From: Candidatus Danuiimicrobium aquiferis
Lineage (GTDB): Bacteria > Omnitrophota > Omnitrophia > Omnitrophales > Danuiimicrobiaceae
Assembly: GCA_001804285.1 (NCBI GenBank)
Contig: MHFR01000042.1
Span: forward strand, 78,725-142,724
DNA length: 64,000 nt
Direction: 5' to 3'
A model generated the notes under the pieces. It did not search any database and was not told where the DNA came from. It worked only from the letters and a program-made list of their open reading frames with translations. Shown here piece after piece: positions 25,267-63,400 of the stretch (positions are counted from its first letter, which is position 1; each line of letters opens with the position of its first letter). Made by a program: the position numbers and the translations under genes.

Positions 25267-25279
25267 AGGTTAATTTAAA

Positions 25280-27229: not shown

Positions 27230-27240
27230 GGTAAGTGTGT

Positions 27241-28520: not shown

Positions 28521-28526
28521 TTTAAT

Positions 28527-37704: not shown

Positions 37705-37743
37705 ACGCGCGATCTTACGGAACGTAAGTCGCTGCGTGAATTT

Positions 37744-37851: not shown

Positions 37852-37912
37852 AAAAACTGTAACGAGAGTAATTAAAAGAAAACACAATAATTTTTAACAT
37901 CAGGAGGTTCAC

Positions 37913-38656: not shown

Positions 38657-38678
38657 GCTGCCACGTTCTCTGCTAAAA

Positions 38679-38733
38679 TAAAAAAAAGGACAGTACCCTT
38701 TTTGCATAGCAAACAGGGTACTGTCCTTTTTAA
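38679..38733. terminator. Bidirectional rho-independent terminator between the convergent stomatin gene and the 38761 gene
   Basis: AAAAAAAGGACAGTACCC ttttgcatagcaaac GGGTACTGTCCTTTTT: 13-bp GC-containing stem flanked by A and T tracts. Confidence 0.8.
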
Positions 38734-38760
38734 TTATTATTTCAAAATTTTTAGAATCAG

Positions 38761-39270: not shown

Positions 39271-39321
39271 AAAATGACCCCTTCAATAGATAACATGAAA
39301 AAAGGGGATTTGCAAGGGAGA

Positions 39322-39349
39322 AGTAGGGGCAATTCATGAATTGCCCCTA
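39322..39349. repeat. REP palindrome GTAGGGGCAATTCATGAATTGCCCCTAC (canonical copy) downstream of the RAYT gene
   Basis: Perfect 28-bp palindrome with 5' GTAG. Confidence 0.9.
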
Positions 39350-39375
39350 CAAAACGGCAAATAAAATGTCAAAGG

Positions 39376-41609: not shown

Positions 41610-41673
41610 CCCCGAATGTTTTAGTCGGGGATCTATAGTTTGTGGATTCCCGCTTAAAGCATGCGGGAATGAC
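41605..41673. repeat. Paired-hairpin element at the 5' end of the BNR gene
   Basis: ATCCCCGA..TCGGGGAT and GATTCCCGC..GCGGGAATGAC. Confidence 0.8.
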
Positions 41674-41794
41674 AATAAAGAGGGAAAAAATCGAAATAGG
41701 TTGTTTTTTTTCATGTTGTTTAGATCTCCTTATAATTGATTTATGATCATAAAGTATATGATTTATAAGAATAATGTCAAGGGGGAAGTTTCAA

Positions 41795-41945
41795 GGATGA
41801 AATTCCAATGACCAAGCACACAATGACCAAGTACACAATGACCAAGCACACAATGACCAAGGAATTTCCAATATTTCAAAATCCAATTGGGAATTTATTT
41901 CTTTGGGATTTATTTGCGTCATTGGGTTTTGGGCATTGGTTATTC
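41795..41945. repeat. CAATGACC-family element upstream of ychF with a 4x tandem 13-bp subrepeat (CACAATGACCAAG)
   Basis: Direct subrepeats plus terminal GTCATTGGGTTTTGGGCATTGGTT. Confidence 0.75.
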
Positions 41946-41963
41946 TAATTTGAGGGAACCAAA

Positions 41964-43058
41964 ATGGGACTTAAAATCGGGATTGTCGGGCTTCCGAACG
42001 TCGGAAAATCAACCGTATTTAACGCGCTGACCAAGGCGGGCGCCGCGGTTGCGAATTATCCCTTTTGTACGATTGATCCAAACGTCGGCATTGTTCCGGT
42101 TCCGGACGCGCGGCTCAAGAAACTTGCCGACATGTATCATCCGAAAAAAGTAACGCCGACCGCGATCGAATTTGTTGATATTGCGGGGCTTGTGAAAGGC
42201 GCGTCTGAAGGGGAAGGATTGGGCAATCAGTTTCTCGGGACCATCAAAGAGGTTGATGCGGTTCTTTATGTGGTGCGGTGTTTTGAAGACGGAAATGTGA
42301 TTCACGTTTCCGGGAAAGTCGATCCGGAAAGCGATATCGGGATTATTCATACCGAACTTTGTTTGAAAGATTTGGATACGGTGACGACCCGCATTCAACG
42401 TCTTGAAAAAGTTTCGCGCACCGGAGATAAGGACGCGAAAACGCAGCTTGAGACACTCAAGAAAGCCGCCGAGCTGCTTGAAGCGGGGAACCCGATCCGG
42501 AGTGGCACGTGGACGAAAGAGGATGCGCCTGTTCTTCAGGAATTACAACTTCTGACGCAAAAGCCGGTGCTTTATTGTGCAAACGTCAAAGAATCCGAGC
42601 TGCCGAAAGGCGGGCCGTTCGTGGATGTCGTGAGAGCGATTGCTACGAAAGAAAATTCAGAAGTGGTTGTGATTTCAGGGAAAGTCGAAGCGGAAGTTGC
42701 GGAGCTTCCCGAAGACGAAGCGATTTTATATTTGAAAGAATTGGGGCTTGAAGAGCCGGGACTTAATCAATTAATTCGCGCCGGTTATAAATTGCTCGGA
42801 CTGATTACATTTCTAACGGCCGGTGAACCGGAAGTTCGCGCCTGGACGGTTAAGAAAGGGTCCACTGCGCCGCAAGCGGCTGGTGTCATTCACTCGGATT
42901 TTGAGCGTGGGTTTATCCGCGCGGAAATTATGCGCTACGACGACCTCATGGAACTCGGCAGCCAGCACGCCGTGAAGGAAAAAGGCCTCTATCGTCTCGA
43001 AGGCAAAGAATACATTATGCAGGACGGCGATGTGGTGTATTTTCGGTTTAATGTGTGA
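41964..43058 (+). CDS. ychF: Ribosome-binding ATPase YchF (Obg-family GTPase)
   Basis: G1 GLPNVGKST; TGS-like C-terminal domain; full length. Confidence 0.9.
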   Translation: MGLKIGIVGLPNVGKSTVFNALTKAGAAVANYPFCTIDPNVGIVPVPDARLKKLADMYHPKKVTPTAIEFVDIAGLVKGASEGEGLGNQFLGTIKEVDAVLYVVRCFEDGNVIHVSGKVDPESDIGIIHTELCLKDLDTVTTRIQRLEKVSRTGDKDAKTQLETLKKAAELLEAGNPIRSGTWTKEDAPVLQELQLLTQKPVLYCANVKESELPKGGPFVDVVRAIATKENSEVVVISGKVEAEVAELPEDEAILYLKELGLEEPGLNQLIRAGYKLLGLITFLTAGEPEVRAWTVKKGSTAPQAAGVIHSDFERGFIRAEIMRYDDLMELGSQHAVKEKGLYRLEGKEYIMQDGDVVYFRFNV

Positions 43059-43150
43059 TGTGTTGAGATATTGAATTCGTTGTTCCTCTTCGCTTTCTTG
43101 CGTGCGCCGATTTTAGCCCAACCGGCTAAACAAAATCGGTGTACTCAGCC

Positions 43151-43186
43151 TATACCAATAAGCTTCGAGCGGAAGCTTATTGGTAT
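43151..43186. terminator. Perfect hairpin downstream of ychF
   Basis: ATACCAATAAGCTTC gagc GGAAGCTTATTGGTAT (15-bp stem); no strong T tract, so a weaker terminator call. Confidence 0.45.
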
Positions 43187-43395
43187 AAAGGCGCTCCGAG
43201 AAACAACGAGTTCAATATTTTATATATTTTGTTAAGAGAAAATCTCTGGGAGTTGTTCGCCGCGAGTTTGGCGAGCCAAATTTTCAAATTATTTTGGCGA
43301 GACACTGTCCGAGCGCCGAGCAACTCCCAGAGATAAATCACTTTTGACTTATTATCAAACCTGCTACAATACGCCATTAACAAGGAGCAGAGCGT

Positions 43396-44037
43396 ATGTT
43401 TCGAACCATCATTGAAGATTATAAAGTCGTATTTAAACGTGATCCGGCCGCGCGTACGATTCTCGGCTGGCTTGAAGTCCTGCTGCTTTATTCCGGATTT
43501 CACGCGATTTTCTGGCACCGAATCAATCATTTTCTCCACAGCAAACTCCATATCCCATTTTTCCCGCGCTTGATCGCGCAATTAGTCCGCTGGTTTACCG
43601 GTATTGAAATTCATCCGGGCGCTGAGCTCGGTCCCGGCTTTTTCATTGATCACGGAATGGGCGTGGTGATCGGCGAGACGACGGTTACCGGAAAAAATGT
43701 GATTCTGTATCAAGGCGCCACACTCGGCGGAACGGGATCAGAACGCGGCAAACGTCATCCGACGCTCGGTGACAATGTGGTGGTCGGTGCTGGCGGGAAG
43801 GTGCTTGGGAATATTACCATCGGAAACAATGTAAAAATCGGTGCCGGATCAGTGGTGATTCATCCCGTACCGGATAACGCGACGGTGGTGGGCGTTCCCG
43901 GTGAAATTGTTCGGGTGAACGGAAAGAAAGTGAGCGACACCGGCATGCTTGATCACGGCGACCTTCCGGATCCGGTACTCGAATTGAAAGAGAAGCTGGA
44001 GAAGCTCGAGAAAGAAATCGAAAGATTAAGAAAATAA
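43396..44037 (+). CDS. cysE: Serine O-acetyltransferase with short C-terminal coiled-coil tail
   Basis: SAT N-terminal motif plus hexapeptide repeats; C-terminal [18 protein letters not shown]. Confidence 0.8.
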
Positions 44038-44160
44038 ACTGAAAATCCCAATGTCCAAATCCACAATGACCAAAAAAATCCCAAGAAAATCAAATATCCA
44101 ATTGGACTTTGGACATTGGGAGTTATTTGCGTCATTGTGTGCTTGGCCATTGGTCATTTA
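44038..44160. repeat. CAATGACC-family element between cysE and rnhA
   Basis: AATCCCAATGTCCAAATCCACAATGACCAAA ... GCGTCATTGTGTGCTTGGCCATTGGTCATTT. Confidence 0.75.
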
Positions 44161-44178
44161 ATTCACACGTTTAGCATT

Positions 44179-44595
44179 ATGCGTTTCAAACTCTACACAG
44201 ACGGCGGGGCACGGGGAAATCCGGGGCCGGCAGCGATTGGCATTTACCTTTGTCATCTCGATGGTGAGGTGGTGCTTGAGCACGGTGAAACGATCGGTGT
44301 TGCCACGAATAACGTTGCGGAATACCGCGCTTTAATTGAAGGCCTTAAACGCGCGAGAGATTTGGACGCGAAATCCCTCGAATGTTTTCTCGATAGCGAG
44401 CTTGTGGTTAAACAACTCCAGGGTGAATATCAGATCAAAAATTTTCAACTTCAAAAACTGTTTGATGAAGTGCGAAGGGCCGAAGTCAGTTTTGAATATG
44501 TTTCCTATACGCATTTACCGCGGGAAAATGAAAACATGCGCAGGGCGGACCAATTAGTTAATTACGCGCTCGACTACGAACAGGGACGGGCCTAG
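44179..44595 (+). CDS. rnhA: Ribonuclease HI (start at MRFKLYTDGG)
   Basis: YTDGGARGNPGPAA active-site motif; the track ORF 5'-extension lies in a repeat. Confidence 0.8.
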   Translation: MRFKLYTDGGARGNPGPAAIGIYLCHLDGEVVLEHGETIGVATNNVAEYRALIEGLKRARDLDAKSLECFLDSELVVKQLQGEYQIKNFQLQKLFDEVRRAEVSFEYVSYTHLPRENENMRRADQLVNYALDYEQGRA

Positions 44596-44986: not shown

Positions 44987-45061
44987 GGTTCTATTCCCCT
45001 TCAATCTCCTTATAAAAAGTATCTGTTTAGCGTTCTGAAGTGGCGAACACGCCAGGTTCGT

Positions 45062-45125
45062 GTCATGCCCGCATGCTTAAGGCGGGCATCCACAGTTTCT
45101 GGATTCCCGCTTTCGCGGGAATGAC
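45062..45125. repeat. Paired-hairpin element downstream of the TSUP gene
   Basis: GTCATGCCCGC..GCGGGCATCC and GATTCCCGC tttc GCGGGAATGAC. Confidence 0.8.
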
Positions 45126-45139
45126 AAAAAAACAGATGC

Positions 45140-45406: not shown

Positions 45407-48400
45407 ATGAGGGGAAAATCCAGAATACTTAGATCGATAGCAGCGGTGACCGTATTCTTTTTTTTCTGGAATACCGCTACAGCGTACAGCTTGCCGGTTC
45501 TCGGACTTTTGCCGGCCAAGTTAGGCACCGTCCAATCCACACCTGAGCATATTCCGTCACAATCAACCGACAAAACAGTTCTGCTTTTATTAAATGCTCA
45601 TACTTCAAGTGACGCACAAAAAAACATCGCCGAAATGCTGGAGTTCTTTCAGGCTCAAGGCATTGACCTGATTGGCTTAGAAGGCGCGGATGATCGGATC
45701 GACGGTGAGATATTCCGCAGGTTCCCGCATAAAGAGTCGCTTGCGAAAGCCGCTTGGCAGATGGTAAAAGACGGAAAGCTGACCGGAGCGGAATACTTTT
45801 ACGTTACAGCGGAAAAAATACCGGCATTTTACGGGATCGAAGACAAAGCGCTTTATCACGAAAATAAAAATGCATTTGTCGCGACTACCCAATTGCGTGA
45901 AAAACTTGCCGTAACTTTAGAAAAGGTTTCAAACGCCGCCGCCGAACTCAAAAACAAAATTTACTCCAAAAAACTCAAGAATTTCGATTCCCTTGTCACA
46001 CGCCATAAAAATCAGGACACAAGCTTCCTCGATTACTTTTCACAATTAAACGAAGCCTCCGACGATGCGGATATCGCGATTCCGACTTATCCGAATGTTT
46101 ACGCCTTATCAAAAGCAGTTGAAAAGGAAAAAACCCTCAATCAGAAAAAAGTTGCCAAAGATATCGAAAAAATCAAGAAAACCCTCCCGAAAGACGCAAT
46201 CCGGGAAGATATTTTTTCAATGGCCGGTAAAAACGATCTTGAATCTCGGAATAAAGATGAAAATGAAGATGTTTTATATATATATAAGAAGCTCTACACG
46301 TATTTTTCGGGGTTGGTTAATCCAAACGTAGGGGCGGGGTCATCCCGCCCGTTTGAGAAGGGCGCGGAGACCGCGCCCCTACAATTGAATGATTTCAAAC
46401 ATTTTAAGCGTTACTACGAATGGCTTGAAGCCGTTACGGCAGTCAAGCAGGCATCTCTTTTCGAAGAATTAGATGCGCTTGTGGTGCAAATTTACAGCCG
46501 GATCGCAAAATCGGATAAAGAGAAAACGCTGCTTGAAATCAACCGTTCTTTTGAGACATTTCAACAGAAACTTGCAATTCAATTGACGCAAAAAGATTGG
46601 GCGAGGGTGAAGGCTATAAAGGTGCCTGGCACGTTTTTTGTGCCTGGCACCTTTTCCGAACTCGGCGACCGTGCTCCTCAAATTTCACCGGAAGAACTCT
46701 TATTGATCGAACAGGCGAATGCACAGGCCTCCCAATTTTATGAAGTTGCCGAAAAACGAAACGTAATTTTCACAGATAAAATTATCAACCAGATGGAGAC
46801 ATCACAGAAAAACGTTTCCGTTGTTGTGGTCGGCGGTTTCCACGAAGCCGGCCTCAGAGCAGCGCTCGAAGCAAAAGGCGTTCATACGGCCGTGATTACG
46901 CCGAAAATGAAAGATGCGATTTCTGACATTCCGTATATAGAACGAATGACGGGAAAGCCCACCCAGCTTGAAAAAATCATTACCGAAGCCATGAGCGCGC
47001 TCGAACGTGAAATCGTGATTTCCGGAAACGCACCGGACGAGATGCGGCGAAATGCTGCAGTGGAACTTGTAACGGCTTCCGTGCTTGAGCGGTTGTGGAA
47101 TACGGATCCGGCACGCCGGGAACAGGTTGCCGATGAATTGAGTCGATCGATTTCCAGAATAATTCCGGGCGTTCAACTTGGTTTGCAGAAACCGGTTATC
47201 CCGGATGATTGCGAAGGTTCGGAAAAGTGTTTGCAAATTCCCGTTGTAATCAACGGAAAACAAATCGGCTTGTCCTTAAAACAGAATGGCGCGTCGAAAA
47301 CGTTTAGCATAGAGCGGGCAAAAGCCGGGGCGCTTCATGAATCGCCCGTACAACAACCATCCGAAGGGGCAATTTATGAATTGCCCGTACCGGTGAATGA
47401 GAATCCAATATTTCCCGGCGCAAAGCGATCTTTGTTCGCTGGTCACCTTGGTGCTGCAGCGGCAGTTGTCATTTCCCGTTCGGAAGTGCGGACCGTTACA
47501 GTTACCAGAGAAGAAAATGTTACGACGATTACGTTTGATGACGGAACGACAGTTTCTGATAGCAATGCGCAAAAATTAGCGGAAAAACTCAAAGCGGTAC
47601 TTCCTGAAAATCTGAGGACAGGAGTTTTAGAGGGAACCGATAAAGCAGCACAGATTTATGTTGTCTCGGGGTCGCGTGGGCGGGATATATACATATGGAA
47701 TACGGATGAACTTCAAACTGCTTTAAATGAATTATTAACTTCCAAATCCGCAACGCCACAGTTTCCGGCAGCAGCATCTCCGGTTATTGAGGCTCGCTCA
47801 GAACACCGTGTTGCTAAAATATTGACTGTGGTGGGTGTTATGGCGGGAGCGATTGCTTCTTACATAATTCCTAATCAAGCGATTCATTTGATCCAGCAAT
47901 ATAATGCGGATATATTTAAATGGGGTTTGATCAGTGTGGCCGGAACTCTTGTTGGGGGTGCGGTCATAGGATTGCTTTGGCATGAAGAAAGAGCGTGGCG
48001 CCAGGCCGCCGCGAAAACGCGCAACATAACAGATCGTTCCAGTGCTGATCAAGAGAAAGCCCAACGCTCCGAAGTGCGGATGAACGCTGATTTTGATGAT
48101 TTGTTCGGTACAAATTTATTTTCGTCAAGGTTGTCATTGGTGTTTGGGGTAATCCTTGTTGTCGGTATCGGCATCGGTATTGCTGTGAATCGGCATGAAC
48201 GTGGGAATACTCCTTTTCCAACCACTATGCCGGCAGAAAGTGCGCCCTCAAGTAATATTCAACCAGCCACCTGGCCAGCGGCGCGCTCCGAAGTGCGGAC
48301 GCAAAGATCGCCGGAGGAACTTTTAAACTTGTATGGAAGATTTGCGCGTGAATTTGCACAAAGAGCCGCGCCGTATCCCATAGATGAAGTCGGAATTTTT

Positions 48401-51400
48401 CACGTCATTAATTGTTTGAGAAAAATCCCCCGCGATACGAGTGACCGGGAAGGAATGGCGGATCCAAGACTATCAAAACCAATCGCTTATGCTATCGTGA
48501 AGCAAGCCCAGCAAGATGATGCTGAATCGAAAGCGTTGGCCGACCGATTACATATTCCTAAGATCAACCCATTGTATCTCGCGGCATTTGAACAATACTG
48601 GAAATATTTAACTACGCGACAGCCTCCCGTCAGTGACATAAGCCAAACTCTCGGAGTCCCCGTGACCTCCTGGCGGTTTGTGAAAGCGCTTCCGAAAGAT
48701 TCCGGCGAACTCAAAATTGTTCTGGATTATTTTCTGCAAATGCTGCGGAAAACCAAAGCGCAATTAGACCGGTCCCATGAAAGCATGATGGGCGATTCAA
48801 CGATAGTGGATGACATTTTAGGCGGAAGCACAATTCCAAACGGCGAACAGGTCGAAGCGATCAGAATGAGTTATGGCGACGAAGCTGTCGAACCGACGTT
48901 GAGGGAACAAGTTAAAGAATTATTATCGAAAGTGCCCGCACCGCAAGCCCGGCCCAAAGACCTGCAAAAAATTTCATTTGAGAAAATTCGTAAAGATCCG
49001 ACAAATGTGGAGAACTGGGAAACGCTGATCGCGGAATTTAATAAAGCGTTTGTTTATTTGCAGGGTTCTATCAATAAGGAAGCCGACGAGATTCGGAAAG
49101 ATGTAAAAAAGCTACGTGCCGAACCCGGCATGCGGGCATGGCTCGTCAACGGTTTTAAAATCAAGAATTTAATTAGAAAAATTGACCAGGGATACAGAAC
49201 CATCCAGTTTTATTCGGATATTAGCGCGCAGCTAAGCCAGTTGAGAATTCTTGCCCAGGCGGTCCATGACGCCAAGGCGAGTCCGCAAAAATTGAGAGCT
49301 TCTCCCAAGACGGGAAGCGGTCGTTCGGAAGTGCGTGGGTCCTTGAGAGAACGGATGAAAGGTTTTTGGAATGAATTTTCACCGGCTCAACAGCATATTC
49401 TCCGCCGTCAAGCTGGGACCTTGCTATTTATTATCGGAGTTGTCGGAATTGCAGTGGGGTCTGCTTTATTTGAACGCAAATCATCGCCGCCGACGACAGC
49501 TCCTTCTCCTACAAGTCAAAGATCAGAAATACGGACAACGCCAAGCACAGAGGAATTACTTCGGATTTCCGAATATATGAGGTTTAAGGATTGGCAAATT
49601 ATTTACAAGGCCGGATCCGGCCATCCGGGCGGAACTCTTTCCGCGACAGAAATTCTGGCAACGCTTTATTCCGACAGGGAGTTGCTTCGTATCGACCCAG
49701 TGCGGGACAGAAATACAGACTATACAAAACGTTGGAAAAACCGTGACCGGCTTGTGCTGTCTAAAGCACACGTCGTTCCGATTCAATATGTGGCTTTGTA
49801 TCTTTCCGGACTTTTGACGCGCGAGGAGATTGAAGCTTTACGTCAAGATTCCCAAGGACTTGCTCAAGGGCACGCGACAATGACGACGTCCGGTATTGAT
49901 CTTTCGGGAGGCGTACTCGGTTACGGGGCTCCGGCAGCGATGGGAATGGCGGTAGCGGCAAAAATGGACGGCCGCGATTATCATACCTTCACGCTGATCG
50001 GCGACGGTGAAATGCAAAAAGGTCCGATGTTCGAAATGATGCAAATCGCTCCGCAGCTCGGCCTCGATAATTTTACGGCGATCGTGGATTACAACCAGTA
50101 TCAGCAGAATCGCGCCAGCACCGGTTACACGGCCTTTGATTATGACAAGATGTCGAGTGTGTGGGAACTCGCCGGATGGAATGTCATCAAAGTGGACGGA
50201 GAAGATTTCAAAGACAACGCCCGTTATATTGAAGAATTGCGGAAAGGTCTTCGCGATTCCAAGAAAATGAAAAACAGCAAACCGACGGTTGTGATGGTGA
50301 AGTCCATCAAAGGCCGCGGCATTTCGGTCGCAGAAAATTTATTCCGCGCCGGCAATACAAAATTTCATGGTAGCGCTCCGAATGCACAGCAATATGAAGA
50401 AGGCGTGCGGGAAATCGCACCCCGGCTCGGCGTGAGTGTTGAGGACAGAAATCTGGCAGATATTGAAAATGATTTAGAAACAATCGGCGACGAACTGCGG
50501 GGAAAATTCCATGACAAATGGCAGATTAGGCAAGGCGGCTTTTTTGGAATCGATCAGAGGAATGACACGTCAGCAGCCCTTGCTTACCGGGAACGGGCGG
50601 CAAAGGTTGGCCAGATTCAACCCAAAGCATACAAACCCGGAGAGGAAGTCGCGACGCGTGTCGCCGCCGGAGACAAACTTCTTTATGAGGCAAGCAGAGA
50701 TCCTTCCCTTGTGTTTGTGAGTCCTTCTGATTTACAGGATTCCGTCAATTTCAAACCGATTGCGAAAGTATTAGGCGAATTTGGTTCACCGGACAAAATA
50801 GGTGACTTTGGTCCCAAAAGTCCGCAAGGCAGATTAGTCACTATCGGAATTATGGAAGACGGCGGCGTGGCTTTGTCGGTTGGAATTTCGGCTGCAGGAT
50901 TAGGATTTAAACCTTTTGTCGGAACGTTTGATCGTTTCGTCGACATTATGCTGACCACCGTTGAAATGGCTGCGCTTAACAGAATTCCTGTTGGAATTGT
51001 CGGCACTCACGCGGGTTCCGAAACCGGGCCTGATGGCGGCGGAAATTTTTCCATTAAAACACCGGCGTTGATAGGCGCTATTGCAGATCACGGACAGGAT
51101 ATGGCGATGTTCGAGCCTGCGGATGCTCCGGGAACCGTGATGGCGGTTGATCAAATGATTACTACTTTAACATCCGGCATGCCGGCTTATTTAAGAGCCA
51201 GCCGTTCTCCGCGGCTCGTGAGAGATCGCGCAATGGCTGTTCGAGATGAAGGAGAAAATGGATTTATTGTTTGGAAATATGCCCTGAATCCCAAAATTAT
51301 TTTAGTCGCAAGCGGTGCGACAGTGACCAATACCATTAAAGCAACCGAGCTGTTGGAATCTCAAGGGATACCTGTCAGTGTTATCGAAATTACGTCGGTG

Positions 51401-54400
51401 ACGGGAATCGAAAAACCGTTTTCCGGCAATCGTCTTGCCCAAACGTGGCTTGCACCGCAAGTTCCGGTTTATACCATTCATGATGCATCAGCAAATGCTC
51501 TTCATGATCCCGTTCTTGGAGTTGCGCAGAGAACGAGAGCTTACGTTCCGGTTTATTCGCGCGGGATCACCGATGCGGGTTCCGCGTCTCCGGCTGCCAT
51601 GTTTACGGCCAATCGTTTTAATGCAGATCAAATTGCCGAAGATGCGGAGGTTATTGTAAAAGGATCAGTTCCTCCGGGTGTTTTCGTCCGGTCTGAAACC
51701 CGCAACATGACAAATAGTTCCAGTGAGGAGTTAACCGAAGCGCGCAACCGTGAAAATAATTCAGAGGGAATGTCAACGGAAAGCGCGCAAGAGTCCTCGT
51801 CTGATCAAAGTGCTAAGACAAGGGCCGAAGCCAGGGAGTTATTGTTACAAAAATTAGAAGGCCTCCTCGGACAATTAGAACAAATCAAGGACGAAGCAAA
51901 TGCCGATCGAATAAAAACATATCTCCACAGTGTGTCGGAGATGATCAAGATGGCGGGCTGGATGCCGGAAGTAGAGAAATTTATTAAAGAGCATTATGAG
52001 ACAACTTCCGGGGCTCAGGTGTTTGAGCCAACGGTGGATGAGCAAACAAACCAAGATTCTTTAGTGGCGCGACGAATCCGGGAGTTAAGGGAAATATTCT
52101 TCGCTAGTTTCAAAAATGCAGCTGAAGACAAAATCATGCAAGTGGCGGGCGGCTATCTGCCGATGCTCGAAGACTTCCAACGCAAACTTGCTTCCTTAGC
52201 CGAAATCGAAAGTTTTGTGAAAGAAAAGATACAACAACAGATACTGGCATTGGTTGAAAAAACGTTCAACGCTATTTTTGAAAATCCTGCTTTGATAGAT
52301 CCTGAAATTAGAGAGGCTTCCTATGTGTTTTCTGTGATCGGAGACGTTGGCGGGAAAGAAGCGGCGCTTAAAAACATTGCCGCTTGGCTTCGGGAAAACA
52401 AGTTGGAACTTCTTCGCACGCGCATTGAAGAAGGGTTGATACTATTAGGAAAGAATGACGCCAAGACCGACTTAAGTCATGCCTATGAGCTTTTGACGGG
52501 GCGTCCTGCGCCTTCGTATCAAGATGATCAAGTGGGATCCCTTGTCGCAAGCCCCATCCGCTCCGAAGCGCGCAACGAATTAAGTTCCGAGTTGGAAGTT
52601 CAAAGTTTGAAGTTGGGGAAAGAAGGTAAACCTGAAACTTTAAACTCAGAACTTGGAACTCAACTTAGGGCCGAAGCCCGCAACATAACAGATAGGTCCA
52701 GTGAGGAGTTAACCGAAGCGGGTGCCGGTACTTTGGCTGATCAAGAGAAAGCCAAACGTGCCGAAGTGCGCAACCTCGGAAATAGTTCAGAGGAAACATC
52801 AATAGAAAGCGCGCAAGTGTCCTTGTCTGATCAAAGCGCTAAGACAAGGGCCGAAGTGCGGGAAGTTGACTACGCCTATTTGGGGGCTTACGGTTTTGTC
52901 GGGGCCGCGATGCTTGGCGCAGCATTTTATGGGAATTATGCCGCTAACCGCAAAGTAAAAACACCAGTCCAGGAAGCCGTATCGCCGACAGCGCACAGCT
53001 TGATCCTTCCGGTTGTCGATACAACAATCTATGTGACGGAACAGGAATTTCAAGAAATCGTTCAAAAAGCGTTTCCGGCGATTGGGACAGCGCCGCTTGT
53101 GTTTGTGACTCCCGAACAGAATACTGCGTTTCTTAAAACATTTTTACCGCACAGAGAACAACATCTATTCAAAAATCTGGTTTTGGATGAACCGCAGCGA
53201 ACGCTCGGGGGGTCTATTAGTTCGGATCGGGTGCTGACGGGTGTAGGGCAGCCAATCAAAGTATTCGGATTTGTCGGAAATGATGATGCGGGTATATTTG
53301 CGCTTGAGAAACTTAAAGGATCCGGCATCGCGACAGGGATCCAGGTGCTGGATGGCGGAATGACATCTCAAACGCTTGTGATTGAAGTGGTGAAGCCCAA
53401 GACGGACGGCAGTGGCGGTTATGATTCGGCAGGAAGATACTTTTTGCATGTTAAAGGCGTGAATGAAGAACTTGGGAAATATTTAGAAAACGGACGTTTG
53501 AAAAGATGGTTTCTTCAGGAGTTCGGAGAAAACGAAAAGCCGATTCTCCATATCGGTTACGAGGCGCTTTCGTCGGAATATTATTTCCGGAATTTATACC
53601 GGCTGATTCGGGAACTTCGTGCGGAAGTGCCCGGCTTGCGTGTTGCGTTGGATACGGTTGCTGATTTCGGGAATTTATGGGGCAAATTTTCAGATGATGG
53701 GAAAAAATTACTCGCAGAACTGGATGTGCTGACCGTTAGTCTCGACGAAGCGGTAGCCATTTACGAAAAGCTGACAGAAAAAAAACTTACGGACATGAAA
53801 GAAAAAGATATGACGCTCGCTCAGGCGGAAGCGGTGTCGAGAGTCATGGTGCCTTGGTTTCTTGCGACAATGGAAAAAGGCACGGTTTTAATCAAGGCGG
53901 GCAATAAGGGAAGTTTTTATGGATCGAATCATTGGCCGAATGGCGGCTGGCGGAACCGAAAGATTCCGTTTGCATGGATGCCGATTGTTCCTAATGAATT
54001 GATACAAGCTGAATATGCGGCAGAAGTGGATGGCGAAAAAGTTGCCAATACGACCGGTGCGGGCGATGCGGCTTCTGCCGGTTTTATTCAGGCGCTGCAT
54101 GACGGCTATGATGTCCATCAGGCGGCGGCACTGGCTTCGGTCTACGGAGGTTTAAGTTACGGCCAACTCGGAGGAGGCGTCATCGGGCACCCTGCCGAAA
54201 CAGTGGGGAAACTTTATCAGGATTTTGTTGCGGCAAACCGCGGCGATTACCGGCCGGCAGCATTTAGACAATCGTCACTCGCGGAGATGACGGACAAAGA
54301 AATTGAGACCCTGATCATCCGGAGAATTGTTGCTAATAACTTTAAGACAGTAAAACCATGGAGTTTTGGGGCTAAAATTGTAAATGTGGAACCGGTCGAT

Positions 54401-57400
54401 ATTAGTGAAGCGATTGAAAAAGTAGGCGCTGATTTGATTAAACAAGTCCGCGAAATTATTTTGAAATATGGGGAGTTTCGAATTGGGATAGAACCGTCTC
54501 ATGACCTTAAAGAGGATGATACGTCTGAGCCCCAAAGCATGTGGGTTTATCCGCCGTCTTTTGCGACTCAGGGAAGAATGTTTTTCGAATGGGTATATGA
54601 TGCTGTTGCGCAGTATGGAGAAGAACTTTCCGGAAACGGCCATCGTATTTCTTCTTTACAGATGGAACAAATCAGAAAGTTTTTGGCGGCATATCCGGAT
54701 GACAACATTCTCGGCATTGTCGCGATCGACCGTTTTCATTCTCAATATAAAAGAGTAAACAAAATAAACGACGGACAACTCCATTATTTTATTGTCAGAC
54801 GGAATTCTTTTGAGGACGATAATTTTCTCGTTTTGCATCCTGCCGATCAGGACTTTGCGGTAGCGTTTGCCCGTGCAATGCCTTTCGAATTTCACCGGAT
54901 GCCCTTAGGGGCTCTGGTGTTAAATACTCCTGAAGAATTGGGCCAGATCAGCGGTACGGATGTTGTGCTCCAGATGCAGTTTATCCCCGTCTCGAAAATG
55001 GCCGGAGTGACTGCTTACAATTTTGATCCGAATCATGCCTTGATCCAGAAATGGTCTGTGCTTGCAGGAACGCCTGTGTTAGAAAATTGGATAAGAAATC
55101 AGCTTGAGATTCGGATTGCAGAACTTTCCCGCTCGGAAGTGCGAAATACGTTTACTCCGGCGGAACTCGGCGAAATCACGCAGCCGCTGATCGACATTCT
55201 CCATCTTGTCCGCGAATTAGATGCCACATCGAACGGATCTTCTCAATTGAGAGCATTCATTCCTCAAGTCCGGCGGGAAATTGAACGCCTCAACATCGAA
55301 GGATTGAATGCCGTTTTGGTCGGAAAAATTATGCCGGTTGCACAGGGGCTTAGCCATGCGGAGCGGGCTCACCACAGATTTTGGACAGAAACAATGCCTG
55401 CGCCGGTCAGTCGGATGGCTCAAGAATTAGCAACCCGGCAGCAATCGTTAACAGGTGATATTGATCAAAAACTGACAAGAGCAAAGGCTGCTGCGTTGAA
55501 GCCCGTAATTACTCATTTAGTAAAAGCGTATGATTTGGTTGCCGATGCACGCGCAATGCAAAGAAAAGTTTTGCAGGATTCAGAAATTGACGGGTTGTTT
55601 AAATCAACCATTGAGAAAATCGAAGCACTTCAAATTGAAGAAGCGATTGGGTTGATTGATCAAATTGTTGAAACGATAAATTCTCTTCTTGAACTTGATC
55701 CGAAGCAATTGCCTTCAATGGTTTCAAATTTAGAACAAACACGGACCGAACTAAACATTGTTCGCCGTCTATTAGAACCGCGTGCCAATGCCGGCGCGGA
55801 TGTAGCTGATGCGAGGGCCGAAGCCCGCGACCTTGGAAGTTCTTTTGTCATTCCCGCGTCCGCCAAACAACGCGGTCGGATCCGCCAAAGCGTTAGTGGC
55901 GGAAAAGCGGGAATCCAGCTGGATCCCCACTTGCGTGGGGATGACACCAATTTGAGAGCCGAAGTGCGGACTGATCAGGTATCGGCGGAAGATTTGGATT
56001 GGGAACGTGCGCGGCTTGAGCAAGAAGAGGAAGATTTAAGAATTAAATGGGAAGCAACGGAATCGGCATATCTTAGATTAAAACAGCTTAGATCAAAGCA
56101 GCAAGGCGGAATTAGTCATAAGGCACTTACGGATGCTCAACAAAGAGCCGCTGAGGCTAACGGGCAATATCTAAAAGCGCAGCAAGCTTTGTTAGCTTTT
56201 CAGAGACGGATTGCTTCGCGAAACGTTTCTTCGAAACCTTCCGAAACTTTAGTGCAACTTCCGGCGTGGATGTACTCTGCTGTTGGGATTGGTAAACCCA
56301 CGTTCCCGACCGTTGCGGCTCAAGTTGCGGCATTAACCGGTATCGGCGGAGCTTCGATTCCAGTACCGCGTCAGGTGCCAACGTCGTTGCTGCAAATTAT
56401 TAGGTCGGAAGCGCGCAACGATCGAAGTTCTTCTGTCATTCCCGCAAAAGCGGGAATCCAGCTGGATCCCCACTTGCGTGGGGATGACACCAATTTGAGA
56501 TCCGAAGTACGGGGCACAGAGTCCCCAGTGCAAGCGGCGCTCAAAAATATTCTGAATGCGCATTTTTATTTAGGAATCATTCCGGGCCTGATTGCATTTT
56601 CGGTTTTTCCATTATGGAGCGCATCGTTTAGTGCGGAGCGCAGACTTCTTCAGACGAAATTAAGCCGGCAGGGAATTTCTTATTGGCAAGTGGATTGGTC
56701 CGAAATTCCGGCTGACGTGTATGATCAAATCAAAGCCATCCGGGCGTCCGGCGGCGATTTTGATGTTCAGTTCAGTCCGGCCAGGGTTGATGATGAATAC
56801 TCAGACTATCATTATCCGCAAACGCTTCGCATTGTGCCGGTTTCCCTAGAAAAGGGGACAGGCAATCGTTCGCTTTTGAGTCATATGCCTGTCCCCTTTT
56901 CTGCGTTAAACGCTGATCAAGCGCGAGCCGAAGTAAGAAGTGAATTCGGAGAAGTCTTAAATCCAATTTTGGCGGATGTTTATAAGATTTTAGAAAGAGC
57001 CGGACGGAAGTTAAGTTTAAGTCCTCTCGAAATCGAAGAAATCAAAACGCCGGTTAACACCTTCTTGAAATGGGTTGAGTCAGAACACGCGTTATCGCAC
57101 GGTCAATATGAACAAGCGCTGGATATCCGCGTCCGGCATAGTAATCCCATCGGGAAAGACGGAAAACCCGAGCGCGCCCAGGGCGGAATTCGCATTTTAC
57201 TGCCGGAAAATCTCGGAAAAGGGTTCAATGACGAGAAATCCAAATTCTACCAAACGCTCAACAGAATGATTGCTGACGGAAAAATCCAGTTAAATGATAG
57301 TGACCACGAAGTTCAAGCTGCATTAAATCGATTCCTGGAGCAGTGGCTGACCGAAGAAACGACAGCGCTTGCCATTGACATGAGTCTGAAAAATAAAATT

Positions 57401-60400
57401 ATGGGGCTTCCGCACGGCGGCGGGAAAGGGATTTCCTTTTTAGGAAAATGGGAAAAAGTTAATGGTGCCTGGAAATTAGTGCCGATTGTGAAGGCCCAGA
57501 TTCAAGACGGCAAACGTGTGTTTCGAACATCGGATGTGGCGATTTTGATGAGGGATATCGGAAGAACATTTGCCGAAAACAATGTGATTCATGAATTGCT
57601 TGACGGCGGCGCGCCCGATCTAAATCCATTCGGCCCGTCGATTACCACGGAGCTATTAATTTCATGGATGATGGATGAAACTATCGCCGTTCTGATGCGG
57701 AATGAAAATGATGACATTTGGAAACAAAATCCCGGGTTGCTTGAGGAATTAAAGGATGCGGATGATAATGTCATTACCAACCCCGCATTTTTAAAGGTTT
57801 GTATGGCGTATACACAGCGGCATCCCGAAAAGATCCTTCCGTTTCTATCGCGGTACACCGGTAAACCGGTCGGATTAGGCGGGTTGCAGTATCGTAAAAA
57901 AGCAACAGGCGAAGGCGTCGTGGTGGCGGCAGAACGCATGGTCACGAAACTTCTTCCGGAGCGGGCGAAATTAGAAAAACCATTATCCGGATTAACGATT
58001 GGTGTTCAGGGACTTGGGAATGTGGGCACTTGGGTGGCAAAAGAAGCTGATCAGCGGGGTGCTTTAGTGACTGTATTAAGCGATGAGGGCGGGGCTATTC
58101 AATCCCCGCAATTTACGGGTGAGAAGTTGACGACGATTGGGACGTACCGCGATCTCACAAAAACAAGAAGCCTGTTGGGAGTTACAAAGCCAACGCTCGA
58201 TGGCCGGCCGAATCCATATTATATTGAAGGTGTTGAAGTCTTAGCGAGAGGAACGGAAGAAGGAAATATAGCGCTTTTTAAATCGAATACTCAGATTAAA
58301 GTAACGGCGGCAGTACAGGGAGCTATTGATGAAAGCAATGTTGATTTAATCGGAGAAGGAACATTATTCATTGATGATGGTGCTAACGGAGGAACGACGA
58401 GCGAAGCAGGCCGTTTGTTATATCAACGGGCTCCAAAAGTTCACGCACTTTCCGCAATCTTAGTCAGCGGCGGTGGCGTCGGACAATCTTCCCGTGAAGT
58501 GGTGGCGAATCTGACGAATCGCTATACTTCGGAAGGGGAAGACAGGGCATGGGTGTCCGAAAGAATCAACGCTGCTGTGGATGCCACTTGGACGGTTAGC
58601 CGGGCGAATGAGGTTGATATGGGGCTTGCGGCGGCGATGCTTGGAATCAAGCGTTTACGCGGGATTTCATCTTTCCGTGAAGTTCAACCCAATGTTTTGA
58701 AGAATGAAAAGCCTTCCACGATTGATGAGTCGCTTGCGATTGATGAAATCCGGTTGGCGGCTGAACGCCTTCGTCAATATGGAATTGAACAGCTAAATTT
58801 ATTGGCGGCGGCAAAGTTGTCTGAAAATGCCGGTGTCCCGGTTGAAGTTCTCGATGAAACCCTTCATTTGAGTAACTCCTTCAAAATTTTAGGATCTCTT
58901 AATTTTATTTTACGTGAACTGGAAAAGGCAAAACGGCAGGGTGTTACGATTACCACGATCGGGACGCAAACAACATTTAATCACGGATATGCGCTTGCGA
59001 TTGCTTACAATATTCTTGTTAATAAGAATGTCATTGATCCGAAACAGACAGAGCTTGTGATTTATGTCGGGAAAGAGATGCCGCCCGAAAATGTCAAACG
59101 GCTTGAAACGCTTCACGCGCGTGTTGTGCAGTTCGAGAATTACGAAAAAGCCAGATATGAAATGGACCGTACAAAGGAACAACTCCGGGATCAAATGATC
59201 CGGGTTGAGCATTTTAACGGGGTTTGGGAAGGATACGCGACTATTTTCCTCCATCTGTTCGATCAAACTAAAGCAAAAGTCGTAAGCGGCGAGTGGGAAA
59301 ACAAAACAATCGGAGTGACGGTTCCGGTCGGCACGGGCGGATTAATTGCCGGTGCGCAAGTGCTCAAGAAATTGGTTCAGGATGAAAAGCTTCCCGTGAA
59401 CATTAAAATCATCGCGGTTCAAACACCCGAAATCGACAGTTTATATCAATCGCTTCTACAAGGAAGAACCGTGCAAAGGAAGTTTCCCCCGATGGTTTAT
59501 GCCAGAGGAATTGGCGTAGAGGAACCGGAAATATCTGTTGGACTGGCGGAATCGTTTATCGATTACGTGGTGTTGGCGGATGAAAGAACACAGGGAATTC
59601 CGGCGACGAAATTACTTTATGACGATATGTCCATGCACGGTCTGGGAGCGCAGAAATATGAAGTCACCTCAGGTTTGACGGCATCTGTGGCGGTTGCCCA
59701 GAAAGAATTTTTTGCGCGCGAAGGAATTGATCTCTTTATTCCGGTGTTAAGCGGAGCAAATGAAATCGAGTCTGTTTGGGAAGAAGTTTTGAAGAGTGAT
59801 GGACAAATTGCCCGATCCGAAGCGCGCGGAATTTCTGGTGCAGGGCAGAATTCGCTGACAAATCTTACTTTTGCTGAATTTTCGGAATATGTCAAAACCG
59901 GAGAAATCGGCCGGGGAGATCGAATTCAAGTCAGAACCAAAGGCGGCCGGATTGACGAAGTTATTTTCGAGCAACTAGAACCTGAAGGAGGGATTTTTCA
60001 ACCGACCGAAATTCAGGGTATTAAAAAAGTTCGGGAGGCAGGACAGCGTTCCCAGGATGTCGAGGTTGCTTATCAGGCTAAAGATGTTCAAACGGTCAGT
60101 GTCATTGCCCGCAGCAACGGTTCACTGCCTGAATTGTTGATACAGCGTGTTGCCTTACAAGATCGCATGGAACAGATTGTGGATGAAATGGTTGTGCCGA
60201 GCGAGGAATTGCTGAGTTTCAGCGGACGAATGATAGACGAAATGAATGCCGGCCTTCGCGGCGATCCCAAGTCATTAAAAATGATTGCGAGCATGGTGCC
60301 GGAAGCAACGGGGAACGAAAAAGGAATTTATGGATCTACCGATATGGGTGGGACAAACCTCAGGAATTTATTTATTAAAATTGAAAATGGCGAAGCGTCT

Positions 60401-63400
60401 CTTGTGGCAATGACAAAGGCCACGATTCCGGTCAATTTAATGGGCAAATCGTCCAGCGCAAAGAAGTTATTTAAATTTGTTGCCGGCAAACGTAACGAAT
60501 TTCTAAAATCCAGAGTATTAAACAAAGCGCTTAAAGATCAAAAAATTAGTATTCCAGAAAAAGATTTGATCGGATTTGCGTATTCTTATCCGGCCGATAT
60601 GGGCGCGATTGATATCGCTTATTCAAGTGGAGCGACTAAATATATGTTACTGACGGATATTGAGGGAAAAGATGTCGGCGCGCTTTACAACGAGGAGCTT
60701 CAAGCCTTGGGATTAACGGCAAGTCGAGTGGGCGCCATTATCAATGATACGGTGGCAACCGGCGCGCTTGCGCAGCTTGCCAACAAAAATGTTCTCGGCG
60801 GTGGCATATTAGGAACGGGCGAAAACTGGGCTTATCTCGAAGATATTGAAAATATTCTTACTTTAACTGAGGCGCAAAGGCAGTGGCTTCGCGAACATGG
60901 CATCAAGAGGATGTGGATCAACATAGAAGCCGGCGGTTTTGATCGAGTGCGACAGACCGAATATGATAAGCAAATGGATCAAATTTCGCCGAAACCCGGT
61001 TCGCAGTTGGCGGAAAAAATGATTTCCGGCATGTATTTGGGCGAACTGGTTCGCGTGATATTGACAGATTTGGCAGGCAAAAAGCTCCTTTTTAACAGTC
61101 AAACCGGGAATCTGTTAGAGACTTCTTTCGGAAAAGATGAATACGCCTATGTTTCAATTTTCGGAATCAGGATCCCTCTTTTTAAGAAACTTGCGGAGCT
61201 TCTGAAAACTATCGGATTAGGCAGATGGATCCGGAAGAATGTTTTCACCTCTTCCGATATGGATCCTATTGCGGCGGATACAACACCCAATCTTAGCATG
61301 ACACGAAATGTTCTCCGGAAATTTGGCATTATGCAAACGACTTATGAGGAACGGAAGGCCGTCAAACGAATTGTGGATCAAGTTGCTTTGCGATCGGCTT
61401 CTCTTGCGGCTGCTCAGATCATGGCAATTATTTTAAAAGTAGATCCGAATCTGGAGCGGTTCCATGGGATGGCTATTGACGGAAGTTTGTTTGAGAAATA
61501 TCCGCGCTACGAAAAGATGATGATGGGTGCGCTCCGTAAAATTGCGGAGAGGAAGTTCGGGGACTCAAGAAAGGTTGATCAAATCACACTGACGCTCAAG
61601 AAAGACGGAACAGGCAAAGGCGGCGGAGCGGTGACTGCGATTGCCGATCAGACAAAAATTGCCGAATTGCCTCGGTTCCCTCGCGTACAAACGGGAGAAA
61701 ATTTCCGGAACCTATCGATTCAGAAAGTGGTTGAGTTGGTGAATGCGCTTGATCTGGGCTATCAGCAGGCTCAAGGGCTCAGGGCGGTGATGGTCCAATC
61801 GTCCGGCCAGAATGTCCAGGTTTTCTGGCGGGAAGGAAGACAACCCATCGGCGGTTTTAGCCGTGCGCTGAACGAAATTAGCCAGATGTTACGCGGCCTT
61901 GGAAGTCCCATATTTGATTTATATGAAGTGAGCCACAAAGGCGCGCTGGGACTTGTCATTGTTCTTTCCGGGCAAACTCCTGCACGCGGAAAAATCGGTG
62001 ACGTGTTTAACATTGCCAGGGCCGAAGCGCGAGTGGCGCAAACGGCGGAGGAATTTGGCAGACTTGCCCAGGCGGCACAAGAAAAAGGATGGATTTCAGA
62101 GGCGGCGTTAGCGAATATCATATCGTGGGGCAGTTCCGAATATAATTTGCGGCTCGGACAATTTTTGACCAAAATGTTTTCCGGTTTCGATGAAGATATC
62201 ACAGTCCACGAAGCCATTACGAAACAGTTTAATGCTGCCGGCCAAAATGAAAAAGTCTGGAAAGAAATCGGCGATGCTTGGTATGAAATCCTGAAAGTCG
62301 GAACAGCCGGTATGCGCGGCAAGATCGGATTCGGCACGAACCGGATCAATCTTTTTACGATCGGAAAGCTTGAGCTTGCTCACGCTTTGGCGGTTGCGGA
62401 TGATCAATATAATGACATTGTGAAGAAGGTGGATTCTCAATTTGATCCGATGACGGAAAGAAAAGCGGTTGTAATCGGCGGTGATTCGCGGCATGGTTCA
62501 TGGCTTCCGGATGCGAAGCAGCCGAACGGCGGAACGCCGGGCTGGCAAATTAAATTAGAAGCTTTGTTGAATGTTGTCCACGGTGTTCGCGCGTATGTTT
62601 ATCAAATTCCAACTTCAACGCCACAAATTGCATGGTCGACGCACAGCCTTGAAGTGGCCGAAGGTTACCGGATTGTGTCCGGCTCGATGAATACGGCAAG
62701 TCATAATCCCGCCACGGACAACGGAAACAAACCCTACAAACCGGACGGCTCCCAGTCGACCGGCGAGTTTGCTGATCTGCTGAAGGACCTGGTCAAGAAG
62801 GCGACACCGGACTATCTTGCGACGCTTCAATATGCCAACCGCAATATTTTAGAAAACATTGATGAGCTGTTCGAACAGGCCGTGAAGAATGGCGAGATTG
62901 TGCTGATCGGCGGCGACAACGATCCGCTTAACGTGGATGATCAATTTGTCGAGGTGGAGCTTGACGAAGCGATTCATACGATCGGAGATTTGTTTGATCA
63001 ATCGAAAATTGATTTAGAAAACGCAAAAATTGTTATTTCACCGCTTTGGGGTGTTTCAAAGCATATCTTGGCTAAAATTTTAAAACGACGGGGCCTTCGC
63101 GACGATCAGATCATTTGGGTGGAGGATGTGCCGAATCCTGATTTTCCGGGTGTGAAAGAAGGAAAGCCGAATCCTGAATCGCCGAAAGCACGGGAAGTGG
63201 CACTGCAGAAAGCGATTGATACGGGCGCGGGTCTTGTGTTGTGGACGGATCCGGATTCCGATCGTCCTGCGGTTGCGGTATTGAAAGATCCCAAAGCCAA
63301 GCCGGCCAATTTTGACGATTTTATTTCTTTGAACGGCAATATGCAGCTGGCTGTGTTGACGGATTATTTGATTCGTGAAATTAAGGAATTGGGAGATTTG

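Follow-up and report, generated by a model that had tools for sequence, protein, structure and literature searches.

R-[SA]-E-x-R, an iterated junction pentapeptide in a giant multi-enzyme protein of the Omnitrophota and a candidate protease recognition site

Giant open reading frames (ORFs) of 10-150 thousand amino acids (kaa) are a hallmark of the Omnitrophota, and whether their products work as a single chain or as cut pieces is explicitly debated. Described examples, with many transmembrane (TM) helices and divergent glycolytic or sugar-metabolism domains, include the 'Archaeovorins' (West-Roberts et al. 2023, bioRxiv 10.1101/2023.11.21.568195) and the 'multi-enzyme metabolic clusters' (bioRxiv 10.64898/2026.06.07.730766, which covers 916 proteins of at least 10 kaa). 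In both cases the authors suspected cleavage into smaller products and left open whether and where the chain is cut; elsewhere, unknown protease motifs have been named as an obstacle (PMC11573180). Here we describe a 64-kb stretch of the Candidatus Danuiimicrobium aquiferis genome (contig MHFR01000042.1, positions 78,725 to 142,724; hereafter the window) in which one giant ORF carries the pentapeptide R-[SA]-E-x-R again and again between its modules. The evidence best supports reading this pentapeptide as a signal that marks the junctions of a polyprotein, most probably one that a protease recognises.

The window ORF belongs to the multi-enzyme giant proteins of the Omnitrophota. Like them, it is very long, has many TM segments, and is tiled by divergent phosphoglucomutase, hexokinase, and kinase modules; they reach 10,000-30,000 aa or more, and the window ORF is open after 6,198 aa. 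Unlike our analysis, the papers name no junction motif, and they point to C39/S8 peptidase domains rather than to a Tiki-like N-terminal domain (N-domain). In the 6.2 kaa available here, Pfam and NCBIfam gave no match to SecA DEAD-like, C39, or S8 peptidase domains, which may be encoded past the window end. We found neither the pentapeptide nor this Tiki-like head domain described in the searchable literature, which leaves subscription papers outside; string searches with the motif peptides returned noise only, and NCBIfam yielded no motif or repeat family for the pentapeptide. An earlier note on this DNA, made from the letters alone, had known of no matching motif, and within that literature we agree.

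The pentapeptide between the modules of the giant ORF

The giant frame opens on the + strand at 45401 (first ATG 45407), is still open at the end of the window after at least 6,198 codons, and is the only frame in the 64 kb that stays open for at least 700 aa. It holds 20 copies of R-[SA]-E-x-R (Table 1): the 18 peptides listed in the earlier note, all of which we recovered in the giant ORF within about 7 nt of where they had been placed, plus RSEHR (47795) and RSETR (51689). The narrower form R[SA]E[VAI]R occurs 18 times compared to 0.06 expected by composition, with a maximum of 2 in 2,000 protein shuffles; for all 20 copies the expectation is 0.06-1.5. There are no copies of this form in the other five frames of the region or in the 18,787 aa of the window's other ORFs (at least 100 aa), which confirms that the motif is real and far beyond chance.

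All 20 copies fall outside the domains delimited by Pfam and PDB matches and outside the N-domain. With recognised domains covering ~48% of the ORF (an envelope estimate), the chance of this is 0.52^20 = 2e-6. Every pair of neighbouring recognised enzymes is separated by the motif, except for the Glu/Leu/Phe/Val dehydrogenase (GDH) and the threonine/serine dehydratase-like domain (PALP). The proposed location of the motif at domain boundaries thus holds for this ORF. The GDH-PALP pair (57329-59584), whose joint of ~40 aa lacks the motif, is the sole two-enzyme unit in the part of the ORF that lies in the window.

Six enzyme families and five to six TM segments share one polypeptide of 6.2 kaa. 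All Pfam and NCBIfam matches lie far below the family cut-offs, indicating that the modules are highly divergent. PDB transketolases align, from their own residues 10-20, to residues 15-26 after the RSEIR of copy 6, so the transketolase module begins at the natural N-terminus of the enzyme. TM segments were called by Kyte-Doolittle (KD) hydropathy with a window of 19; five are clear and one is weak, and two have a motif copy on either side (889-TM-962 and 1308-TM-1374, aa). The motif had been described as typically next to a TM helix. This adjacency is real for 5-6 of the 20 copies, yet it is a minority pattern: in the whole family ~7% of 270 copies have a TM segment within 50 aa, at variable distance, compared to 3.3% of random positions. 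Membrane anchoring is therefore the context of a minority of copies and not the typical one.

Two linkers between paired copies have taken up double hairpins that resemble miniature inverted-repeat transposable elements (MITEs) or repetitive extragenic palindromic (REP) elements, both in frame and without stop codons. Intergenic copies with the same TGTCAT...ATGACA ends lie at 4846-4922, 16771-16845, 21110-21243, 37741-37855, 41604-41679, and 45061-45134. That paired-motif spacers accept in-frame MITEs indicates that the spacer sequence is dispensable.

Table 1. Features of the giant ORF in the window. Amino acid (aa) ranges of Pfam/NCBIfam matches are counted from 45401, N-domain residue numbers from the ATG at 45407.
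Feature	Position	Strand	Basis or remark
Giant ORF, multi-enzyme modular protein	45407-64000	+	ORF scan; domains from Pfam and NCBIfam
Putative signal peptide or signal anchor, MRGKSRILRSIAAVTVFFFFWNTATA/YS, N-terminal	45407-45487	+	read from the translation
Tiki/ChaN/TraB/EreA-like N-domain, conserved	45506-47080	+	invariant H65, Q71, E92, E145, R451, GGxH479
Two degenerate in-frame REP copies (GTAGGGGCAATTCATGAATTGCCCCTAC), just 5' of copy 1	47324-47392	+	repeat family D7, shared with 27201, 39323, 39606
Copy 1, RSEVR, directly 3' of N-domain	47477-47491	+	position kept in relatives; segment pLDDT (predicted local distance difference test) ~25-30
Copy 2, RSEHR, directly before TM1	47795-47809	+	
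TM1	47813-47869	+	KD mean 1.69-1.89 (TM1 and TM2)
TM2	47912-47968	+	KD mean 1.69-1.89 (TM1 and TM2)
Copy 3, RSEVR	48065-48079	+	
TM3, between copies 3 and 4	48131-48187	+	KD 2.77
Copy 4, RSEVR	48284-48298	+	
Copy 5, RSEVR	49322-49336	+	
TM4, preceded by RRQAG, between copies 5 and 6	49415-49471	+	KD 2.29
Copy 6, RSEIR, 5-10 aa before natural transketolase N-terminus	49520-49534	+	
Transketolase module, full length	49535-51505	+	Pfam Transketolase_N, Transket_pyr, Transketolase_C; match aa 1390-2031
Copy 7, RSETR, opens linker cassette duplicated at 52667	51689-51703	+	repeat D11
Copy 8, RAEAR	51821-51835	+	repeat D9
Copy 9, RSEAR, first in run of four spaced 30-36 aa	52559-52573	+	
Copy 10, RAEAR	52667-52681	+	
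Copy 11, RAEVR	52757-52771	+	
Copy 12, RAEVR	52847-52861	+	
Weak hydrophobic segment after copy 12	52868-52930	+	hydropathy
PfkB-family sugar kinase, partial match	53681-54175	+	aa 2761-2925
Copy 13, RSEVR	55130-55144	+	
Copy 14, RAEAR, left of pair with copy 15	55814-55828	+	repeat D19
In-frame MITE/REP double hairpin with internal insertion, spacer of copies 14-15	55846-55945	+	
Copy 15, RAEVR, right of pair with copy 14	55955-55969	+	repeat D15
Copy 16, RSEAR, left of pair with copy 17	56402-56416	+	
In-frame MITE/REP double hairpin (TGTCATTCCCGCAAAAGCGGGAATCCAGCTGGATCCCCACTTGCGTGGGGATGACA), translated VIPAKAGIQLDPHLRGDD, spacer of copies 16-17	56434-56488	+	97% identical to intergenic copy at 4846
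Copy 17, RSEVR, right of pair with copy 16	56498-56512	+	
TM6, after copy 17	56549-56605	+	hydropathy
Copy 18, RAEVR	56924-56938	+	
Glu/Leu/Phe/Val dehydrogenase (GDH)	57329-58660	+	Pfam/NCBIfam, aa 3977-4420
Pyridoxal phosphate-dependent, threonine/serine dehydratase-like domain (PALP)	58781-59584	+	Pfam/NCBIfam, aa 4461-4728
Copy 19, RSEAR	59813-59827	+	
Hexokinase module, start ~100 aa past copy 19	60134-61651	+	aa 4923-5413
Copy 20, RAEAR	62018-62032	+	
Phosphoglucomutase/phosphomannomutase (PGM) module	62579-63862	+	aa 5727-6154

The motif in relatives

Homologues of the first 1,378 aa are all large proteins, and those with a phylum name are all from Omnitrophota except P0010 (Endomicrobium). 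The genome scan gave 80 loci, the phylum-named ones nearly all from Omnitrophota metagenome-assembled genomes, with a few labelled Planctomycetia/Planctomycetales or Bdellovibrionaceae. Homology between the window ORF and its relatives is limited to the N-terminal 550-650 aa; the downstream modules of P0015, L003, L004, and L001 are unrelated to those of the window. Across the 80 loci, ORFs that are 1000 aa or longer contain R[SAT]E.R at a density of 1.37 per 1000 aa, compared to 0.16 for smaller ORFs, where the hits are mostly fragments of broken giant ORFs. Unsupervised word enrichment ranks the pentapeptide first in most large ORFs of relatives, and a logo of 266 sites confines the information to the five positions, with flanks at 0.41 bit or less. 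The first copy always follows the N-domain, at aa 693 in the window ORF, 636 in L001b, 766 in L003, 754 in L004, and 686 in P0015.

The fourth residue is lineage specific. Leu is found as RSELR in L004, L035, L043, and L046 and as RAELR in L003, Val as RSEVR in L042, L051, and P0015 and as RAEVR in L018, L068, and L075, and Met as RSEMR in L062 and RTEMR in L024. Sister-clade lineages without R-x-E-x-R (class 1) carry [GA]-A-R-[LM]-[AS] (class 2) in equivalent places: after the N-domain, paired around low-complexity spacers of 40-50 aa, and before TM segments or segments resembling twin-arginine translocation (Tat) signals. The two classes are mutually exclusive per ORF (26 vs 12 ORFs). The L078 ORF that starts at 999, counted as class 2 by the simple rule, is to be disregarded, as its top word, (F)SPD[GS]R, resembles a repeat of the beta-propeller type and not a junction motif.

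The motif can also be seen to delimit modules that come and go. L035 and L043 are 66% identical over 2,941 aa and differ by only two well-anchored large indels, of 244 and 802 columns, both of which begin and end exactly at RSELR copies. Together with the separation of recognised enzymes in the window ORF, these two gains or losses support the earlier suggestion that the motif delimits modules. Close orthologues of the window modules were absent from the metagenome scan with the hexokinase module, so positional conservation is testable only in L035/L043. The profile search with A3 in a set of 5.8 billion proteins returned 4 proteins only.

Gaps between copies peak at 20-40 aa (27/231 are below 40 aa), with a second, broad range from 80 to 600 aa, which means that copies are often paired around short spacers. 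These pair spacers are repeated within one genome and unrelated between genomes.

TM centres lie preferentially downstream of the motif, 27 at +15 to +59 aa compared to 6 at -45 to -1. Of the 11 Tat-like signals inside ORFs, five are no more than 30 aa downstream of a copy, compared to 5.6% expected. In L019, RSEMR at aa 1351 runs directly into RRDFLGMMLKTSAAVVAAAVVPGLTGC (RRDFLGMMLK...LTGC), a Tat signal with a lipobox; in L018, which has Sec-type signal peptides, RSEAR at aa 1299 is followed by KFLGLKGFVLAAALFLSSMTYA/QS; and in L057 the class 2 motif GARLA at aa 2940 is followed by GETRRAFLGKSLSLLGVAAGVNLQAEA. Internal Sec and Tat signals right after the motif normally need a free N-terminus and are hard to use without a new one. 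A C-terminal sorting signal (LPXTG or PEP-CTERM type, with motif, TM segment, and basic tail) was considered and rejected, because the copies are internal and iterated and TM segments follow so few of them at so variable a distance.

Motif-bearing giants lie head to tail in L001 (1-9771 and 10001-14347), L003, L027, L048, L062, and L068/L069; in these, the next ORF with an N-domain begins a few hundred bases past the C-terminal end of the previous one. The database protein P0012 (715 aa) corresponds to the window ORF from 45407 to 47550 and is identical to it until 22 aa beyond the first motif, where it diverges (…ENVTMITFEIGRA) and then terminates. Either a variant of the assembly or a truncated allele could account for this protein.

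The polyprotein reading, its candidate protease, and the alternatives

We put the chance about even that R-[SA]-E-x-R is the site at which a protease recognises and processes a polyprotein; the N-domain, which is Tiki/TraB-like and encoded in cis, may be the enzyme that cuts there. Among the earlier suggestions, processing or cleavage sites is the one retained as the best reading, with cleavage itself something that we infer. The giant ORF would then encode a bacterial polyprotein, in which a signal-anchored Tiki/TraB-like domain precedes a series of units, each complete and able to fold by itself; these are enzymes and short TM segments and, in relatives, also exported proteins with signal peptides of their own. 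The sharply bounded pentapeptide R-[S/A]-E-(V/A/L/M)-R would divide these units, and a site-specific endopeptidase would recognise it and cut wherever it occurs between units. A cut at a lone copy would part two modules, whereas cuts at two copies 15-50 aa apart would remove the disposable spacer or TM 'stuffer' between them. Cutting would also yield the free N-termini that downstream signal peptides require.

The most economical candidate for the protease would be the N-domain, because its subfamily tracks the motif type; it is the leading but unproven candidate. Its alpha/beta fold has the parallel beta-sheet core of the TIKI/TraB/ChaN/EreA superfamily (TIKI/TraB/PrgY/ChaN/EreA; Sanchez-Pulido & Ponting 2013, as cited in PMC6254334). 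The fold comparison figures are 10.1 for HopBA1, 9.9 and 8.9 for EreA-like Bcr135/136, 9.3 for a TraB family protein, 9.2 for ChaN, 9.1 for EreC, and 8.3 for the Ras/Rap1-specific endopeptidase RRSP, all from the TIKI superfamily list (PMC6254334). That this superfamily includes an endopeptidase, RRSP, counts in favour of a proteolytic N-domain. H65, Q71, E92, E145, R451, G476, G477, and H479 are invariant across 62 N-domains, so that the His-Glu pair and the second putative catalytic His (H479) are kept in 62/62, and the H65-E92 spacing is 27 residues compared to 28 in RRSP and Bcr135 (PMC6254334). Its putative activity would be that of a hydrolase, as peptidase or esterase.

The N-domain also departs from the superfamily. 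Its length of ~525 aa includes a large helical insertion (residues ~150-440), and its matches are below Pfam thresholds: PF04187 ('Tiki superfamily, ChaN') is matched by 7/62 domains (best E 3.3e-5) and PF01963 (TraB_PrgY_gumN) by 2/62, the window N-domain matches neither, and a sequence-profile search of the PDB with the N-domain found nothing. At the first acidic residue of the superfamily's 2His/2Glu set (E-x-H), most members have D-A-H and the window clade has N-A-H. The family (proteins P0015-P0160, loci L003-L082) is very large, with 7,041 cluster representatives at E of 1e-3 or lower. The 150 best matches listed are mostly long modular proteins, and nearly all of the 150 have the domain at the N-terminus or close to it. 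Several N-domain paralogues occur per genome.

The motif was expected to be universal in N-domain proteins, which was refuted: 74/77 long representatives lack an iterated pentapeptide (R.E.R observed/expected 1.04), and the N-domain thus does not need the motif. The iterated pentapeptide is found only in subfamilies with Asp or Ser at four residues past the invariant His (His+4). With Asp (n=45), the class 1 and class 2 densities are 1.86 and 0.09 per 1000 aa, with Ser (n=21) 0.53 and 1.38, and with Glu (n=61) 0.05 and 0.04. This is the pattern of a co-evolving enzyme/site pair and equally that of shared ancestry. The two motif classes form separate clades, and in a mutual-information ranking many N-domain columns discriminate them, so D69/D99/F478 (class 1) versus S/S/Y (class 2) as specificity residues are suggestive only.

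Several points weigh against a cleaved polyprotein. That the chain is cut, where within the pentapeptide the cut would fall, and which enzyme would make it are inferred throughout from sequence, and there are only two anchored indels to draw on. GDH and PALP are joined without the motif, Asn (NAH) replaces the first acidic residue in the window's own clade, and most N-domain family members do without the pentapeptide; the link between N-domain subfamily and motif class may reflect shared ancestry only. In an AlphaFold2 model of the N-domain with the first motif, the motif lies in a tail of pLDDT 25-30 and does not dock. Finally, the N-domain is predicted to be extracytoplasmic and many modules are classic cytoplasmic enzymes, a topology in which it is not obvious how the enzyme would reach its sites.

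In the main rival reading, the pentapeptide is a short linear motif that stays uncut, and the giant protein is an intact membrane-tethered multi-enzyme scaffold. The motif would serve docking or assembly, with the N-domain, a chaperone, or a SecA/Tat-related factor as the partner, or it would be a charged topogenic signal at the borders of modules. The alternation of R, small residue, E, hydrophobic residue, and R would suit beta-strand docking, TM segments preferentially follow the motif, and the published view is that of a membrane-associated coat (PMC10066038). We nevertheless find this doubtful: the Tat plus lipobox and Sec AxA signals right after the motif, deep inside ORFs, are hard to use without a new N-terminus, paired copies bracket junk spacers that tolerate MITEs, whole modules are gained or lost exactly at motif borders, and a TM segment is near so few copies (~7%).

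Could the motif instead be a passive scar, a linker cassette spread by duplication or recombination, whose 10-15 nt word serves as (micro)homology for module shuffling and has no protein function? The duplications are real. The linkers at 51735-51837 and 52761-52863 are 84% identical, those at 51690, 52668, and 48009 form another set, and 55900/56443 and 55814/56402 are 96% and 82% identical. About half of the window copies lie in such recently duplicated cassettes (D9, D11, D15, D19; 82-96% DNA identity), including 6/8 of those with Ala. Ala is GCC in 8/8 and Glu is GAA in 20/20, there are mild third-position biases in the 250 sites outside the window (CGY at position 1, NCC at position 2, NNG at position 4), and module indels begin and end at motif copies. 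The recent duplications account for the GCC bias and the shared word, and interchange of S, A, and T at the first codon base explains the TCN bias of Ser.

The earlier note had seen nearly all copies as encoded by one 10-nt word and conserved at the DNA level as well. The exact word CCGAAG[TC]GCG occurs only 9 times, and the 20 window copies use six codons for the first Arg, four for Ser, and seven at position 4. In relatives, including L001, the codons vary freely (GCT/GCA/GCC, GTT/GTG), and every synonymous position changes even between orthologous sites: the same RSELR is CGC-TCC-GAA-TTG-CGC in one of L035/L043 and CGT-TCC-GAA-TTA-AGG in the other, and AGT for Ser and AGR for Arg occur in this pair too. 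The DNA word as the primary signal was rejected on these grounds, and with it the claim of conservation at the DNA level. Because the peptide is strictly kept while synonymous codons vary, selection acts on the protein, on the peptide rather than the nucleotide word, and the trend is already towards a dN/dS far below 1 at the motif codons. The flanks carry no information, the motif recurs in proteins with unrelated modules, and 15 degenerate nucleotides are too few for homologous recombination. A passive scar is thus improbable in our view.

A signal at the RNA or translation level, such as an internal start at position 4 (GTG/TTG/ATG), ribosome skipping, an RNase site, or a small mRNA hairpin, seems highly improbable. 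Position 4 is V, L, or M in 64% of sites with GTG and TTG over-used, RSEMR followed by RRDFLG resembles an ordinary Met-initiated Tat signal, and Arg CGN codons 9 nt apart are able to pair. However, 30% of sites have Ala, Thr, or Ser at position 4 (Ala in 7/20 of the window copies), GTT/GTC/GTA and CTT/TTA codons occur there, and a Shine-Dalgarno sequence is absent, and we rejected an internal start codon as a general explanation. The hairpin was rejected as well, as base pairs in the 15-nt word are no commoner than in shuffles and show no nucleotide covariation; amino acids are kept while nucleotides change, and Seymour et al. report no catalytic RNA domains in giant ORFs.

We give next to no weight to the motif as a target-site duplication or attachment site of the MITE/REP elements, suggested by the two MITE copies exactly between paired motifs (55814-55969 and 56402-56512), since all six intergenic MITE copies lack the flanking word, which refutes the duplication and leaves the insertion or recombination site envisaged in the earlier note unsupported. 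In addition, most pairs in other genomes bracket unrelated spacers, and the majority of motif copies stand alone. Our tests thus disfavour readings at the DNA level, at the RNA level, and by way of mobile elements.

Other elements lie elsewhere in the window. The palindromic REP GTAGGGGCAATTCATGAATTGCCCCTAC has intergenic copies at 27201-27230, 39323-39352, and 39606-39635, beside or within an IS200/Y1-transposase-like ORF at 39376-39936 (- strand; Pfam Y1_Tnp, E 1.2e-6), an arrangement that looks like a REP-associated tyrosine transposase (RAYT). Other short repeats, tandem 15-mers CAATGACCAAG(C/T)ACA with their inverse and TTGGTCATTG, lie at several gene ends (23997-24117, 25276-25330, 28480-28527, 41806-41950, and 44041-44163). 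The ~12 kb annotated directly upstream (33145-44595) encode a histidine kinase, NfeD/SPFH, an IS200-like transposase, a BNR protein, YchF, a hexapeptide transferase, and RNase H, with no type II/IV secretion-like locus among them.

Comparison with known polyproteins

It is tempting to speculate, as a possibility that we hold only tentatively, that in some Omnitrophota much of the metabolism is encoded in true polyproteins, from which a membrane-tethered Tiki-like endopeptidase at the N-terminus, co-evolving with a lineage-specific pentapeptide, releases dozens of enzymes, TM peptides, and Sec/Tat-exported proteins. If true, cells would have a counterpart to the polyproteins of viruses, with junction peptides in place of stop codons, ribosome-binding sites, and start codons. 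If confirmed, it would represent a new mode of organising gene expression in cells and offer biotechnology a new specific protease/site pair. The junction pentapeptide is a concrete prediction testable on existing proteomes and gives a rule for splitting giant proteins into units for structure prediction and annotation, and the N-domain is a candidate enzyme with three residues to mutate.

The giant ORF resembles the MARTX toxins, giant polypeptides whose independent effector or enzyme modules are released by a cis-encoded protease at short inter-module sites, a release that would have its counterpart here in the putative cleavage at the pentapeptide. MARTX processing relies on a cysteine protease domain that is activated by inositol hexakisphosphate and cleaves loose linkers after Leu. 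RRSP, which is one of the MARTX modules, shares its fold with the N-domain described here (context in PMC6254334). Unlike in MARTX toxins, the window ORF has a strict pentapeptide, another candidate enzyme, modules that are housekeeping-type enzymes, and many more junctions.

In flavivirus-type polyproteins, soluble modules alternate with TM segments or internal signals, short basic sites stand just upstream of the internal signals, and a TM 'stuffer' is freed between the protease site and the signal-peptidase site. These polyproteins are viral, and they use a chymotrypsin-like protease and dibasic sites. The giant ORFs appear similar, judged by their translations, in that TM and signal segments are interleaved with soluble modules and a putative recognition site precedes the internal signals. 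To our knowledge, no equivalent has been described for the metabolic enzymes of a cellular organism. With known polyprotein cleavage sites, the pentapeptide shares the form of a short conserved sequence between independently folding units.

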